Below are positions 6,510 to 9,545 of a stretch of DNA of 42,367 nucleotides, piece by piece (position 1 is the stretch's first letter; each line of letters begins with the position of its first letter). The stretch lies in the IMG/VR virus record IMGVR_UViG_2563366848_000004; one strand, 5' to 3'. The notes under the pieces are model-generated. The model had not been told where the DNA came from, ran no database searches, and worked only from the letters and a program-made list of their open reading frames with translations. The translations under genes and the position numbers were made by a program. This DNA is from a virus (taxonomy: Duplodnaviria; Heunggongvirae; Uroviricota; Caudoviricetes).

Positions 6510-6585
6510 TTGCATATTAAGCCTGAGACTTAAATCATGTCAAGCTCCAGGCGAAATGTGATTGTAAGTTTCAGGCTTAATCGTG
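6510..6585 (-). promoter_or_regulatory. leftward early promoter with operator sites (OL/pL-like)
   Basis: On minus strand TTGACA (6543..6538) - 17 nt - TTAATA (6520..6515); 17-bp site TTAAGCCTGAGACTTAA (6517..6533) overlaps spacer/-10 and is the inverted copy of the OR site; additional half-site TCAGGCTTAA at 6571..6580. Confidence 0.5.
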
Positions 6586-6684: not shown

Positions 6685-6715
6685 AAAAAACCCGGCGCTG
6701 TGGCCGGGTTTTTTC
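6685..6715 (-). terminator. rho-independent terminator (bidirectional-type hairpin)
   Basis: AAAAAA-CCCGGC-gctgtg-GCCGGG-TTTTTT immediately after the stop of the 34-aa ORF. Confidence 0.6.
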
Positions 6716-6716
6716 A

Positions 6717-6821
6717 TTACTGCTGGTTAAATCCTTTCGGCGAGTGCTGCTGTTCTTTATTACCAAATTTTTGATTTACAATGATTTTATAAGCGTTATT
6801 GAGAGCTTGCTTTATAGACAT
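6717..6821 (-). CDS. 34-aa hypothetical basic peptide, translationally coupled to the 435-aa gene
   Basis: Hand-translated: MSIKQALNNAYKIIVNQKFGNKEQQHSPKGFNQQ; arrangement TAA(stop of upstream gene)-cacat-AAGGAG-atatta-ATG; followed directly by the terminator. Confidence 0.4.
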   Translation of the reverse strand: MSIKQALNNAYKIIVNQKFGNKEQQHSPKGFNQQ

Positions 6822-6838
6822 TAATATCTCCTTATGTG

Positions 6839-8143
6839 TTATTGACGATTAAAGTAGTTAGAGTTTAGCTCTTTAGGGAAGTAGTGTTTACGATTTACCC
6901 AAACAAATCCATCAACTTTTGATATCACAGCGACATCAACAGGCCCACCGACAGTTTCATAATCATGTGATACTTTTCTTTTGAATGCAGTGATGTTCAC
7001 TAATGATTCGGCCATATACGCAAGATCTGCCTTCCCAAGTGATTGCAACATCGATATCATTTTATTTGTATGGTTATTAACAATATAGCTTTCAAGTTTA
7101 GTATCGTGATCTTGTAAAAGTACGTTTTTGAGTTCCTCAATTTCACTGGAGAAGTGATTGGCTAGTACTCCATTGTTCATTGCAGGGAAAATATTGCTAG
7201 AAACATAATGATTAAGCCGATCAAAAACTTCCTCTGTAAGAGTTCTGTTAAAATTAATGATGTTAGGGTTGCACCCATCAATGAAAGTTACTACTTCATC
7301 TTCTTGAGCAAATGGTATAACAAACCCCATATTGGTTACCTTATTATGGGATTTATCATCAATATTATGGATCATCAATTTGTTTTTAAAAATGCCGTAG
7401 ATATGAAGAGTGCAAATGGAAGGGTAATATTCTTCCTCTCCATAACCTGTTATAACAATCCCTGAATATGTACGACTAGCATGGACTTTGAAAATTAAAC
7501 AAGTGGAATATAATATGACTTTTTCCATAAGCTCTTGCTGTATATTTTCACAGTTATCAAGAACAATAATTGATGAAATGTATGGCGATATTAAATCTTG
7601 TATATATGCTAAAGCATCATTAAACTCTTCTGTATCAAACCCTTCGAAAAAGAGATTATTCCTTAAGATTCCTATCTCTAAATCAAAGGCTTGCTTAACT
7701 ATGTTTTGAAAAATAACATTGTCGAGTTCAACGGCGGGGTTCATTGTTAAATAGTTTACTACATTATTATCATTAATGTATCTCATCAAACCTTTGAGGT
7801 TATCAACAACAAGGTTTATAACGCAAGCCTCTCTCATTTCATTTGTTATAAGGTCTGAGTTACCATTGATGAATTTTACAAAGTCATTAACATATTCTTT
7901 AATGGTAGGGAAACTAGTTTTCCCCAATTGTTTTCTATAGGATTTAATTATAAGTTCCCACGGTGCGCCACCCAGTGTCGCATTATTATAAATCATGATC
8001 CCCACGGGATGGTGTTTAGATAGTTCGAATAGTTTTTCCGCACTATTATTTATTTTTACTAATCTATTATGCTCTGTGGTGACTGCAGAGTCAGCAGCAA
8101 GGGCGATTCCAGTATTATTTATTACAACAATCTCAGCTGTCAT
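6839..8143 (-). CDS. AT-rich 435-aa protein with proteasome-beta/HslV-like Ntn-hydrolase signature; candidate lysogen-expressed defence protein
   Basis: Long ORF in a markedly AT-rich island; start at ATG 8143 (MTAEIVV..., GGGA upstream) preferred over track start 8242, which has no SD; N-terminus T2-x15-D18 ... K30-I and C-terminus DYETVGGPVDVAVISKVDGFVWV resemble Ntn threonine-protease motifs (from memory); same strand as and downstream of the repressor. Confidence 0.75.
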   Translation of the reverse strand: MTAEIVVINNTGIALAADSAVTTEHNRLVKINNSAEKLFELSKHHPVGIMIYNNATLGGAPWELIIKSYRKQLGKTSFPTIKEYVNDFVKFINGNSDLITNEMREACVINLVVDNLKGLMRYINDNNVVNYLTMNPAVELDNVIFQNIVKQAFDLEIGILRNNLFFEGFDTEEFNDALAYIQDLISPYISSIIVLDNCENIQQELMEKVILYSTCLIFKVHASRTYSGIVITGYGEEEYYPSICTLHIYGIFKNKLMIHNIDDKSHNKVTNMGFVIPFAQEDEVVTFIDGCNPNIINFNRTLTEEVFDRLNHYVSSNIFPAMNNGVLANHFSSEIEELKNVLLQDHDTKLESYIVNNHTNKMISMLQSLGKADLAYMAESLVNITAFKRKVSHDYETVGGPVDVAVISKVDGFVWVNRKHYFPKELNSNYFNRQ

Positions 8144-8164
8144 TGCAAAACATCCCGTGTAGTA

Positions 8165-8201
8165 GTGATAAATATTAATTAAATTGATAGTTTTTTTCAA
8201 T
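8165..8201 (-). promoter_or_regulatory. putative sigma70 promoter for the 435-aa gene
   Basis: Minus-strand TTGAAA (8200..8195) - 17 nt - TAATAT (8177..8172), about 30 nt upstream of start codon 8143; AT-rich DNA raises the chance of spurious matches. Confidence 0.35.
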
Positions 8202-8284
8202 CTAACATAAATGGCGGAATCACCCCCCAGTAAAGACATCATTGTCTCATGGGAACTAAAAATTCAGGACAAACCTAAAGCGAT

Positions 8285-8671
8285 TCAGTCCCCCTGCGAG
8301 CGAATCCGCCCCTTCATGTACTTCTCATACAGCTCATCCAGTTCCTTAAGACGTATCGAAAAGATGCGGAGCATGTTCTGTTGCTCTTCTTCTGGCAGCT
8401 GGCGGTAGAGCTCAAGCAGGCGCTGTTCGTCCGGCTTAAGTCCGTCCTTCTCGCCGACATCCTCACCGAGTAACCAAGGCACAGACACGCCAGCTGCGTC
8501 AGCGACAGCGAGAGCTGATTTCTTGCTGATCACGCCTTTTTTAAACCAGCCGTTCACAGACTGCGGGGTTACCCCAGCAACCCTAGCCATATCGGATTTG
8601 GTCATACCGCGCCCGTTCAGCTCTGAAAGGCGTTCGACAAGTATCGGATTAAGTACGGTTTTCTCTTTCAT
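8285..8671 (-). CDS. prophage repressor, HTH XRE family (CI/RacR-like)
   Basis: 128-aa ORF; HTH segment MTKSDMARVAGVTPQSVNGWFKKG; divergent from the Cro-like gene across an operator-rich intergenic region. Confidence 0.8.
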   Translation of the reverse strand: MKEKTVLNPILVERLSELNGRGMTKSDMARVAGVTPQSVNGWFKKGVISKKSALAVADAAGVSVPWLLGEDVGEKDGLKPDEQRLLELYRQLPEEEQQNMLRIFSIRLKELDELYEKYMKGRIRSQGD

Positions 8672-8704
8672 GGTTAGAAGAATAAGCCTTTTTCTTAAAC
8701 TTGA

Positions 8705-8760
8705 AAATTCGCCTCAGGCTTGACAATAAATTAAGTCTCAGGCTTAATTTGATTGTATTC
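8705..8760 (+). promoter_or_regulatory. rightward early promoter with operator sites (OR/pR-like)
   Basis: TTGACA (8720..8725) - about 17 nt - CTTAAT; 17-bp site TTAAGTCTCAGGCTTAA (8731..8747, arms TTAAG/CTTAA) overlapping the -10; second CTCAGGCTT half-site at 8713..8721 overlapping the -35. Confidence 0.55.
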
Positions 8761-8775
8761 AAATCGGAGACAACG

Positions 8776-8994
8776 ATGAACGGGTTAACGAAAGCCATTA
8801 AGTCCGCTGGCACTGCAACAAATCTCGCAACCATGCTGGGCATCAAGCCGATGTCGGTCAGCCGCTGGAAAAACCGGTACCAGGGCGTGGTGCCTGCTGA
8901 TCGGGTCCTTCAAATCTACGCGGCTACCGGCGTAACTCCACACGAGCTGCGCCCTGATCTCTATCCAAACCCAAGTGACGGTTTACCAAAGTAA
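8776..8994 (+). CDS. Cro-like HTH regulator (YdaS family)
   Basis: 73-aa product from internal ATG with GGAGA SD; ...LATMLGIKPMSVSRWKNRYQGVVPADRVLQIYAATGVTPHELRPDLYP matches the YdaS/Cro-type pattern (HTH followed by P..RV..I...TG......LRPDL). Confidence 0.7.
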   Translation: MNGLTKAIKSAGTATNLATMLGIKPMSVSRWKNRYQGVVPADRVLQIYAATGVTPHELRPDLYPNPSDGLPK

Positions 8995-9005
8995 GGAATG
9001 TAACT

Positions 9006-9545
9006 ATGCAATCACTTACGTATCAACAGAGTAACGGGTTCATTTCAGCAGCGCTGATAAATCGCGCTCAACCAAAACCGGGCGTCAGTTGTGGTGCCCT
9101 CCGTGATGCTGTTCGCGCCTGGTCAGCAGTAGCCGGGCAGGACGTTGTAACGGCCCTGATCGTTGAAGAGTGGCACCGGATAGGTGGCGAAGGTATCGAC
9201 TTTCCGGCAGATCACAGCCGTGCCCGGCAGAAGCTGTTCCGCTTCCTGGATAACCATTTCAACAGCGAACGGTACCGCGAGAACGTCCGCCAGCTGACGC
9301 CGGCAATCCTCGCTGTCCTGCCGATTGAATACCGCAATCGTCTGCTACCAGAAGACAACGTAATGGCTCGTCTGGCAAGGCTGGAGAAGGAAACCAGCGA
9401 AGCGAAGATTGCTGTCGCAATGGATGCGCCACGTCATCAGAAGCTGAAAGAGTTGAGCGAGGGGATCGTGGAGATGTATCGCGTTGACCCTGGGTTAACC
9501 GGTCCGTTGATGGAAATGGTGCAGATTATGCTGGGGGCTATATGA
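9006..9545 (+). CDS. hypothetical early regulatory protein (YdaT/CII position)
   Basis: 179-aa ORF directly after the Cro-like gene; assignment by position only. Confidence 0.5.
   Translation: MQSLTYQQSNGFISAALINRAQPKPGVSCGALRDAVRAWSAVAGQDVVTALIVEEWHRIGGEGIDFPADHSRARQKLFRFLDNHFNSERYRENVRQLTPAILAVLPIEYRNRLLPEDNVMARLARLEKETSEAKIAVAMDAPRHQKLKELSEGIVEMYRVDPGLTGPLMEMVQIMLGAI

Follow-up and report, generated by a model that had tools for sequence, protein, structure and literature searches.

The AT-rich segment at 6715..8250 (minus strand) of the 42,367-nucleotide stretch of DNA analysed here, hereafter the window, is best explained as a horizontally acquired two-gene cassette that a Rac-like lambdoid prophage carries as an accessory within its immunity region. 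The cassette, about 1.5 kb long and self-contained, consists of a candidate promoter, a gene for a 434-aa proteasome-family Ntn (N-terminal-threonine) hydrolase with two helical insertions, and a gene for a 34-aa basic micro-protein; that the two genes form a functional module is highly probable. What is new here is the conserved micro-protein partner gene, together with the finding that sampled homologues sit mostly in slots for accessory genes in prophages and satellites. We consider the E. coli cassette, which lends itself to direct testing, a good candidate for a phage-defence module of a new kind.

The foreign character of the segment is evident from its composition and from its breakpoints. 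Its GC content is 33.7%, against 52–53% in either flank, and no other 1.5-kb interval of the window, where the median is 53.1% and the 5th percentile 41.2%, has a lower one, in agreement with the initial annotation, which had described a segment far more AT-rich than the surrounding prophage. Homology with a sister E. coli prophage that carries other cargo stops at 6710–6714; that prophage fills the same slot with HicAB and other small genes, and the slot is hence a variable one. Strain ET881 has the cargo at 99.8% identity, whereas its repressor region shows only 84.5% over 57% of its length.

Directly upstream of the cargo, and co-oriented with it, lies a gene for a 128-aa HTH repressor (8285..8671, minus strand). 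Its product matches Pfam HTH_3 (E = 1e-6), PHROG 8, a transcriptional regulator, and, both weakly, Phage_CI_repr and the DicA subfamily of NCBIfam (E = 1.7e-8, under its cut-off); divergent from it are genes with YdaS_toxin/P22_Cro Pfam matches (8701–8994) and YdaT (9006–9545). An OL-like operator cluster at 6513..6581 (repeat families D1, D2, I1, I2 and I4) holds the TTAAGCCTGAGACTTAA motif two to three times, with copies at 6513–6538 and 6565–6581 that overlap a leftward PL-like promoter at 6543..6514 (scan 10/12). The same motif recurs in an OR-like cluster at 8704..8757 (D1–D3, I1 and I4), its copies at 8704–8725 and 8726–8751 falling in the interval that separates the repressor gene from the divergent YdaS/Cro-like gene, so that the layout of operators on either side and a co-oriented repressor upstream stands as first described. 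A sigma-70-like promoter candidate, TTGAAA-17-TAATAT, was likewise located within the cargo upstream of ATG 8143 (8172..8200, minus strand; consensus scan 9/12), as a consensus match only; because such matches are frequent in AT-rich regions, it is no evidence of function. The repressor/cargo transcription unit ends just before the PL-like promoter, at a rho-independent terminator of the form A6-CCCGGC-loop-GCCGGG-U6 (6685..6714, minus strand), whose arms at 6685–6696 and 6703–6714 form a perfect 12-nt inverted repeat (−18.9 kcal/mol, z = −4.4). The hairpin is thus present as first noted; its attribution to the cargo unit does not hold, since the sister prophage with a different cargo has the same sequence up to 6710–6714, which assigns the terminator to the prophage backbone.

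The hydrolase gene (6839..8143, minus strand) runs from ATG 8143 to a stop codon at 6841–6839 and begins MTAEIVV. RefSeq places the start at 8242, giving 467 aa. The motif MTAE[IV] is found in 39/39 aligned homologues, at the very N-terminus in 35 and behind N-terminal extensions in the other 4, and Thr occupies position 2 in 141 of 144 representatives; we therefore take 8143 as the true start, as initially annotated, with the length amended from 435 to 434 aa. Across these 144 representatives, chosen at a pairwise identity of at most 50%, an active site of the Thr1/Asp17/Lys33 type is kept, the counts at candidate catalytic and neighbouring positions being Thr2 in 141, Asp18 (position 17 of the mature chain) in 144, Ser19 in 144, Lys30 in 143, Lys37 in 144, Glu/Asp396 in 143 and Thr/Ser397 in 144. 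The Ntn signature proposed for Thr2 and Asp18 is thereby upheld. Lys30, which had been put forward as the Lys33 counterpart, is indeed a conserved lysine, but that equivalence more probably belongs to Lys37, whose motif AEKLFEL matches the proteasome GKKLFQI and which the alignment of the K-L-F strand pairs with Lys33. The hydrolase has no propeptide, Thr2 following Met1 immediately; once Met1 is removed, the threonine should hence become the first residue, an arrangement also seen in HslV, Anbu and BPH, and we infer that the mature protein would act as a peptidase. For the second pair of the proteasome catalytic pentad, Ser129/Asp166 (PMC11947121), the 20S beta residues have no recognisable counterpart in the hydrolase sequence; in our search Ser169 aligned with Val398, and the conserved Gln280, Glu/Asp396 and Thr/Ser397 are candidates.

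Taken together with its predicted structure, the protein is almost certainly an Ntn hydrolase of the proteasome family. The fold anticipated in the initial annotation was found when the structure check was run: the predicted model adopts the four-layer alpha-beta-beta-alpha fold of proteasome beta, with ring-forming 20S beta subunits as its best structural matches and HslV more distant. The model places H1 at 62–73, H2 at 81–94, and the insertions at about residues 98–220 (after H1/H2) and 293–368 (between H3 and H4), with no insertion between strands 38–40 and 47–53. The insertions, helical and about 200 residues in total, evolve fast; all 55 invariant positions fall in the core and none in the insertions. 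By sequence alone, homology to the proteasome is weakly supported. The only sequence-level PDB matches are to T. acidophilum proteasome beta, at the motif (S/V)GGxIDVAVIxKxDG, where the full-profile search reached an E of only ~0.85. An hhalign comparison with an archaeal proteasome-beta alignment recovered the C-terminal motif only (49% probability, 20 columns). When N-terminal profiles were used, Thr1, Asp17 and Lys33 fell simultaneously into register, at a non-significant 3.7%; searched against PDB sequences, the N-terminal 74 residues returned antibody light chains at chance level and nothing else, which puts the N-terminal signature below statistical detection by sequence alone. A Pfam search that included PF00227 gave no match at E ≤ 1 for the hydrolase or the 34-aa product, three chance-level hits aside; NCBIfam and PADLOC held nothing for either protein, and PHROGs one family of unknown function only. 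A Foldseek search of BFVD found no member of the family, its best matches (E ~3e-3) being other phage proteasome-like proteins.

The micro-protein gene (6717..6821, minus strand; product MSIKQALNNAYKIIVNQKFGNKEQQHSPKGFNQQ) follows the hydrolase gene across a 17-nt spacer (6822..6838, minus strand) that can be read directly: hydrolase TAA, 5 nt, the strong Shine–Dalgarno sequence AAGGAG (6833–6828), 6 nt, and ATG 6821, exactly as the first reading had it. That reading had also proposed the coupled 34-aa ORF as a gene, and it proves to be a real and conserved one. A co-oriented ORF of 30–75 aa that starts between −25 and +40 nt from the stop was present at 84/84 homologue loci, compared with 291/838 control frames, and is preceded by a Shine–Dalgarno-like sequence at 80 of the 84. 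The 45 distinct peptides have motifs in common, and dN/dS values of 0.10–0.25 (dS > 1.2) indicate purifying selection. The ORF persists even beside homologues of 29% identity, in Enterococcus, Ruegeria, Rhizobium and a Porphyromonas phage. Public annotations mostly lack these ORFs. Eight diverse micro-proteins searched against Pfam and PHROG matched no family. The peptide is hydrophilic, basic and disordered-looking, with a helix and a [K/R]-[F/Y] motif as its conserved features. Most likely, the helix and motif would bind the hydrolase; the peptide could then be an antitoxin-like regulator, whether by inhibition or by posing as a substrate, or else an adaptor or a specific substrate. Two other roles were discarded: its hydrophilic, basic composition and the lack of a hydrophobic segment rule out a small membrane toxin, and its unconserved C-termini rule out a Pup-like tag.

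The hydrolase family is very large: clustering at 50% identity gives about 6,000 groups, and neither Pfam nor NCBIfam nor PADLOC has a model for it. Among E. coli genomes its distribution is patchy (13/5,426). Relatives were found on 221 IMG/VR contigs, in only 10 of 72,556 plasmid records, and in 13 of 50,697 phage records, these being temperate phages and satellites only. Over the about 15 distinct neighbourhoods from which our picture of carriage is drawn, the sampled homologues sit mostly in accessory slots of prophages and satellites. In Klebsiella prophages, a 70%-identical homologue takes the corresponding position, where the repressor ahead of it is an unrelated CI of the S24 type; at another Klebsiella locus the homologue adjoins the lysis cassette and is divergent. 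Between Q and the lysis genes, homologues are antisense in Enterobacter and co-oriented in Providencia and Proteus. Others lie at prophage ends (Pectobacterium, Streptococcus), in PICI-like satellites (Streptococcus, Serratia) or beside a filamentous prophage (Vibrio), and in the Streptococcus satellites a HigB-like/HTH pair stands immediately upstream. Upstream of the homologue in Pectobacterium, a gene of 435 aa that might have been a tandem paralogue proved on testing not to be one.

We interpret the cassette as likely to provide an accessory function expressed in the lysogen. Position and carriage give roughly even odds that this function is protective, with the cassette a protection module of temperate phages and satellites that acts by superinfection exclusion, abortive infection or inter-element competition; for an anti-phage or inter-element defence role as such, we would put the chances at even or slightly below. 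Transcripts that read through from the repressor gene, a promoter of the cassette's own, or both, probably provide for expression of the pair in the lysogen, and transcription would stop before PL, at the terminator of the backbone. If the PMI class is a guide, the insertions would prevent classical double-ring assembly and form a gate or recognition surface, and infection would relieve the control of the peptidase, upon which a phage or host target would be cleaved. Somewhat more tentatively, the cassette may found a widespread two-component immunity or competition system, in which a threonine-peptidase sensor-effector is held under a dedicated micro-protein. Neither gene product matched the PADLOC-DB v2 models at E ≤ 1, and our literature search found no report that links the hydrolase family to defence or phage protection. 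Prophage accessory slots also house toxin–antitoxin, virulence and anti-defence genes. A dedicated role in cleaving the S24-less repressor was rejected, as in Klebsiella the same gene follows an S24 CI that cleaves itself, other phages have it far from any repressor, and it also occurs in satellites.

Several other readings of the pair were weighed. A toxin–antitoxin-like addiction module, with a toxic protease restrained by a labile micro-protein (or the reverse) and the prophage or satellite stabilised without anti-phage selection, would suit a compact, tightly spaced two-gene unit of which one product is small and disordered-looking, and both the HicAB in the same slot of the sister prophage and the HigB-like/HTH pair directly upstream in Streptococcus satellites lie in its favour. 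Yet neither product resembles known toxin or antitoxin families, and 434 aa with fast-evolving insertions is sensor-effector-like and atypical of a toxin; we regard this reading as unlikely, although it overlaps with defence, since many toxin–antitoxin pairs are themselves abortive-infection systems. It is rather improbable that the hydrolase is instead a Connectase-like, sequence-specific transpeptidase or processing enzyme with the micro-protein as its dedicated substrate, attacked by Thr1 at or near the [K/R]-[F/Y] motif; a mature peptide would then be made, or ligated to a target, and the outcome would be signalling or modification and not degradation.

The gene might also serve the carrying phage's own cycle, as an anti-defence or host-takeover protease or as a modulator of induction or lysis. 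Other proteasome homologues, PPH and AAH, are carried by phages (PMC8665760), and the gene is often found beside Q and lysis genes, at times co-oriented with the late operon (Providencia, Proteus). In Enterobacter and Klebsiella, however, it is antisense to the neighbouring lysis genes, here and in Klebsiella it lies within the repressor operon, it is present in satellites that have no lytic programme of their own, and all 13 carriers among the phage records are temperate phages or satellites, all of which makes a part in the phage cycle quite improbable. Very unlikely, finally, is a self-compartmentalising general protease, an HslV- or BPH-like ring that gives a proteostasis or stress benefit by lysogenic conversion, with the micro-protein as assembly factor or cap. 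Although the best structural matches form rings and the ring-contact core helices H1–H4 are present, the large insertions fall at the two sites where a clash with the assembly of rings and double rings is predicted, and no unfoldase or AAA+ partner occurs in any of the neighbourhoods seen. Some 200 rapidly evolving residues would moreover be unusual for a housekeeping protease, and the distribution among E. coli genomes is patchy.

For a family of proteasome homologues that has lacked a function, the cassette offers two clues, namely an obligatory micro-protein partner and frequent carriage in prophage and satellite accessory slots, which is where defence and toxin–antitoxin genes sit. Were a defence role true, an N-terminal threonine peptidase would be a new catalytic class in bacterial immunity, echoing the part that the proteasome plays in eukaryotic antiviral responses. 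The two-component reading, if true, would provide the first functional tie of proteasome-like enzymes to bacterial antiviral defence, and the largest group of 'orphan' proteasome homologues would thereby gain its first function. Should the hydrolase instead turn out to be a Connectase-like processing enzyme or ligase, the enzyme–peptide pair would be a potentially useful tool.

Among described proteins, the hydrolase fits best with PMI-4 ('Proteasome homolog with Multiple Insertions', Fuchs, Alva & Lupas 2021; representative HDY66466.1), a group that was catalogued by bioinformatics without an assigned function in Proteobacteria, Firmicutes, Bacteroidetes and phages, and for which its authors found no informative genomic context (PMC8665760); our provisional assignment follows the published description of the group. 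Both have a proteasome-beta core, a Thr1/Asp17/Lys33-type site, no propeptide, and two insertions, one placed after H1/H2 (helices 101–218 in our model) and the other separating H3 from H4 (helices 293–368), and the phyletic spread of the hydrolase homologues agrees with that of PMI-4 in Table 1 of that study (PMC8665760). The study described neither a downstream micro-protein gene nor systematic carriage by prophages and satellites, both of which are found here. The initial annotation had recognised no described defence family, which remains so by the PADLOC search; the protein family itself had probably already been described, given the fit to PMI-4 (PMC8665760).

Classical members of the fold differ more widely. 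The 20S proteasome beta subunit (MEROPS T1, PF00227) has about 200 aa, whereas the hydrolase has 434, has no PF00227 match, alpha subunit or propeptide, and resides on mobile elements. HslV (ClpQ) is compact (~175 aa) and encoded with the AAA+ protein HslU; the hydrolase is more than twice that size with its two insertions, and no gene for HslU or another AAA+ unfoldase was found beside it in the window or at the homologue loci examined. The earlier view that it is not a canonical HslV is therefore borne out, both by the two helical insertions, which add roughly 200 residues, and by the neighbouring genes. Archaeal Connectase (MJ0548) lacks H1/H2 and has a two-helix insertion between S3 and S4, whereas the hydrolase retains H1/H2 and has its insertions elsewhere.

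In its placement, the cassette resembles lambda rexA-rexB and Rac sieB: the genes lie on the OL side of the repressor gene, point the same way as it, stop at a terminator ahead of PL and would be expected to be active in lysogens; the comparison with the rexAB slot made at the outset is thus sound, the cassette lying between the OL-like and OR-like operators and downstream of the repressor as in lambda. The likeness is one of position and not of homology to RexA, RexB or SieB, as no Pfam family matches the hydrolase or the 34-aa product at E ≤ 1; RexAB, moreover, is a sensor and an ion channel, whereas the cassette gene encodes a predicted peptidase. The nearest functional analogy is Lit of the e14 prophage, a single-gene zinc metalloprotease that is activated by the T4 Gol peptide and cleaves EF-Tu, leading to abortive infection. 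Like Lit, the hydrolase is proposed to be a prophage protease that would guard the lysogen, cutting a target when infection occurs; it differs from Lit in its catalytic type, that of an N-terminal threonine, and in the cognate micro-protein encoded alongside.

The large gene runs on the minus strand from an ATG at 8143 to a stop codon at 6839-6841 and encodes 434 aa, one fewer than the 435 aa of the initial annotation, whose choice of start is nevertheless upheld: MTAE[IV] is present in all aligned homologues (n = 39), 35 of which begin at MTAE, the equivalent of window position 8143. RefSeq WP_231531568 starts instead at ATG 8242 (minus strand), giving 467 aa; judged from the aligned homologues, its 33-codon N-terminal extension (8143-8242) is probably an annotation artefact, and its use would bury the catalytic Thr. 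Pfam, NCBIfam and the PADLOC defence models returned no match to the protein, in agreement with the first reading, which had recognised no described defence family; its PHROGs match, over the full length, is to family 5990, of 'unknown function'. The family exceeds 6,000 matches in a 90%-clustered database and amounts to 6,083 clusters at 50% identity (E <= 1e-3), and among the matches listed nearly all are 415-457 aa long, align from residue 1 and are 'hypothetical' wherever the source names them.

The best PDB matches of the family profile are to the Thermoplasma proteasome beta subunit, pairing tVGGPiDVAViSKgDGfi with ASGGMIDVAVITRKDGYV (E ~0.85), and hhalign against an archaeal beta-subunit alignment recovers the same C-terminal motif with 49% probability (pairwise E = 1.8e-4). 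The N-terminal profile alignment to proteasome beta is below significance (3.7% probability) and places Thr1/Thr1, Asp17/Glu17 and Lys36 (mature)/Lys33 simultaneously in register. Such profile evidence for proteasome kinship is weak, yet all of it points in the same direction. Across 144 representatives with pairwise identity of at most 50%, Asp18, Ser19, Lys37, Thr/Ser397 and Asp403 occur in all, Lys30, Gln280 and Glu/Asp396 in 143, and Thr2 in 141. The Thr and Asp of the catalytic signature proposed initially therefore stand, whereas its Lys30 is displaced by Lys37, which appears the better candidate for the Lys33 counterpart (AEK-LFEL vs GKK-LFQI). HslV is made without a propeptide, and Met removal exposes its Thr1; by analogy, Met removal would expose Thr1 in the hydrolase, which also lacks a propeptide. 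Two predicted helical insertions, at ~98-220 after core helices H1/H2 and at 293-368 between H3 and H4, account for ~200 extra residues; all 55 invariant positions lie in the core and none in the insertions. A PDB search found no solved structure for the family, and no member was found in BFVD. We consider the proteasome-family fold of the large protein well supported, to the point of near certainty.

The 34-aa ORF (6821-6717, minus strand) follows through the junction TAA-5 nt-AAGGAG-6 nt-ATG, and its proposed coupling to the large gene is borne out by comparison. All 84 homologue loci that extend far enough past the hydrolase stop have a co-oriented ORF (30-75 aa) whose start falls within -25 to +40 nt of that stop, preceded by an SD-like sequence in 80; of 838 long open frames taken from these loci as controls, 291 are followed by such an ORF, 140 of them with an SD-like sequence. 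The partner also stands beside 29%-identical homologues on an Enterococcus plasmid, Ruegeria and Rhizobium replicons and a Porphyromonas phage, and no other neighbouring gene of the homologues is conserved. The 45 distinct partner peptides fall into types that follow the clade of the large protein, with dN/dS of 0.10-0.25 in the conserved segments within types (dS > 1.2). They have in common a helix motif, Q-x-[VI]-x-[DNK]-x-[AIM]-[YF], a [K/R]-[F/Y] dipeptide (for example ...NQKF, ...AAAKF, ...EWQKKFNP or ...KDFF) and, usually, a second aromatic residue close to the C-terminus; none matches a Pfam or PHROG family. The partner ORF often goes uncalled in public annotations: the gene predictions of comparison loci L002-L004, L088-L091, L097-L098 and L104-L106 omit the conserved partner of 35-55 aa just 3' of each homologue, so that the micro-protein family is largely missing from protein databases. 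We take the small ORF, on this comparative evidence, to be a real conserved partner gene of the hydrolase, and a functional two-gene module is very likely.

The pair occupies a block (6715-8250) whose GC content of 33.7%, against 52-53% in both flanks, is the lowest of any 1.5-kb stretch of the 42-kb window, confirming the AT-rich segment noted between repressor and terminator. The surrounding Rac-like lambdoid E. coli prophage, whose integration site adjoins kch, is ordered integrase, RecT, RecE, YdaE, the region of interest, YdaS/YdaT-type genes, replication genes, Q and lysis genes. Among 5,426 complete E. coli genomes, 13 contain the block (>=99.8% identity). Strain ET881 matches the cargo at 99.8% identity, whereas its match to the adjacent repressor/YdaS region is only 84.5% and covers 57% of that region's length. 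The equivalent slot of the strain AR_0118 sister prophage (L092 5117-6944, corresponding to window 6715-8285) holds HicA/HicB, a hypothetical protein of 141 aa, a small YoaK-like membrane peptide and an additional HTH gene. This marks the position as a site of variable cargo, in which the AT-rich block moves as a unit of its own.

Upstream of the block lies the gene for a 128-aa HTH_3 repressor, weakly DicA-like (8285-8671, minus strand). The 17-nt operator-like motif TTAAGCCTGAGACTTAA recurs on both sides, in at least two copies at 6513-6581, overlapping a leftward promoter (TTGACA-18-TAATAT; the operator-covered PL-like promoter, 6514-6543), and in two copies at 8704-8757, between the repressor and a divergent Cro/YdaS-like gene. 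Together with the gene order, these elements define an OL/PL-to-OR layout (OL/PL, terminator, small gene, large gene, repressor, OR), the same arrangement as OL-rexB-rexA-cI-OR of lambda and the one initially read here. The terminator assigned to the small ORF is present as a strong hairpin 3' of it (arms 6685-6696 and 6703-6714; -18.9 kcal/mol, z = -4.4), but belongs to the prophage backbone rather than the cargo, since homology to the sister prophage, whose cargo is different, extends as far as 6710-6714. Being symmetrical (6685-6714; A6 stem-loop T6), it might terminate transcription from either side. The PL-like promoter begins ~140 nt away, with the terminator upstream of it, an arrangement like that of lambda t_imm, which shields early leftward transcription from the immunity transcript.

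Relatives are encoded on 221 IMG/VR viral contigs, in 13 of 50,697 phage records (temperate phages and satellites only) and in only 10 of 72,556 plasmid records. In Klebsiella lambdoid prophages a 70%-identical homologue lies directly behind an unrelated S24-type CI. The pair sits between Q and lysis genes in Enterobacter (antisense) and in a Providencia phage and Proteus (co-oriented), and adjoins the lysis cassette in Klebsiella (divergent from it) and a Stenotrophomonas phage. The latter, vB_SmeS_BUCT708 (OM816834; L006), shares the gene order around the homologue with Klebsiella pneumoniae prophages L104-L106 (holin, lysozyme, DUF1378), and its partner peptide is identical to that of six viral contigs from IMG/VR, including L057-L061; both point to very recent transfer or host mis-assignment. 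Elsewhere the pair lies at prophage ends (Pectobacterium, Streptococcus), inside a phage (Porphyromonas), in an int-AlpA-primase island of a Serratia PICI-like satellite, and beside a HigB-like/HTH pair in Streptococcus PICI-like satellites; in Javan103 (L007 8601-9252), Gp49/HigB-like and HTH antitoxin-like genes are immediately upstream, at the satellite's accessory end. In Vibrio it adjoins a filamentous prophage and a PLD-family gene; in V. vulnificus (L095 2646-3823) the PLDc_2 gene and a 107-aa ORF, which may be an unrelated accessory or defence gene pair, precede the homologue, with the Zot-encoding prophage adjacent. On Rhizobium gallicum plasmid pRgalIE4872c (L103 6671-9177), a 30%-identical homologue lies ~1.4 kb from multiubiquitin-domain and ThiF/E1-like adenylyltransferase genes; this proximity to a ubiquitin-like conjugation operon is a single instance, with three opposite-strand genes between.

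The structural and organisational interpretation offered initially is supported, apart from minor corrections to length, Lys37 and terminator. Prophage accessory slots of this kind typically hold exclusion, abortive-infection or toxin-antitoxin functions. The locus is best explained as a self-contained, horizontally mobile accessory module of a putative proteasome-family Thr1 hydrolase and its cognate micro-protein. Its expression in the lysogen is probable, whether by repressor-gene read-through, from a candidate promoter at 8200..8172 or by both routes, with transcription that would stop at the backbone terminator. The micro-protein would control or target the peptidase, and infection would unleash it. 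This protective role is favoured because of the usual contents of such slots and the invariant core bearing ~200 rapidly diversifying residues; we hold it tentatively, at slightly under an even chance. Its rivals are a pure addiction module, a Connectase-like processing or ligation enzyme with the micro-protein as its substrate, a protease of phage-benefit or anti-defence function, and a general protease in ring form; insertions of the present kind are predicted to block ring or double-ring assembly (Fuchs, Alva and Lupas 2021; PMC8665760).

The hydrolase family has been catalogued before, among the orphan proteasome homologues. The same authors listed 22 new proteasome-homologue subfamilies and found no genomic context pointing to function for PMI-4 ('Proteasome homolog with Multiple Insertions' group 4; 501 nr90 sequences) (PMC8665760), and no paper in the literature searched ties the family to phage defence. 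New here are the gene for the small partner, the pair's association with accessory slots of mobile elements and its candidate role in defence, all directly testable. Compared by published description, PMI-4 and the window protein are alike in their spread (all major bacterial phyla and phages for PMI-4), in insertions after H1/H2 and between H3 and H4, and in the missing propeptide (PMC8665760).
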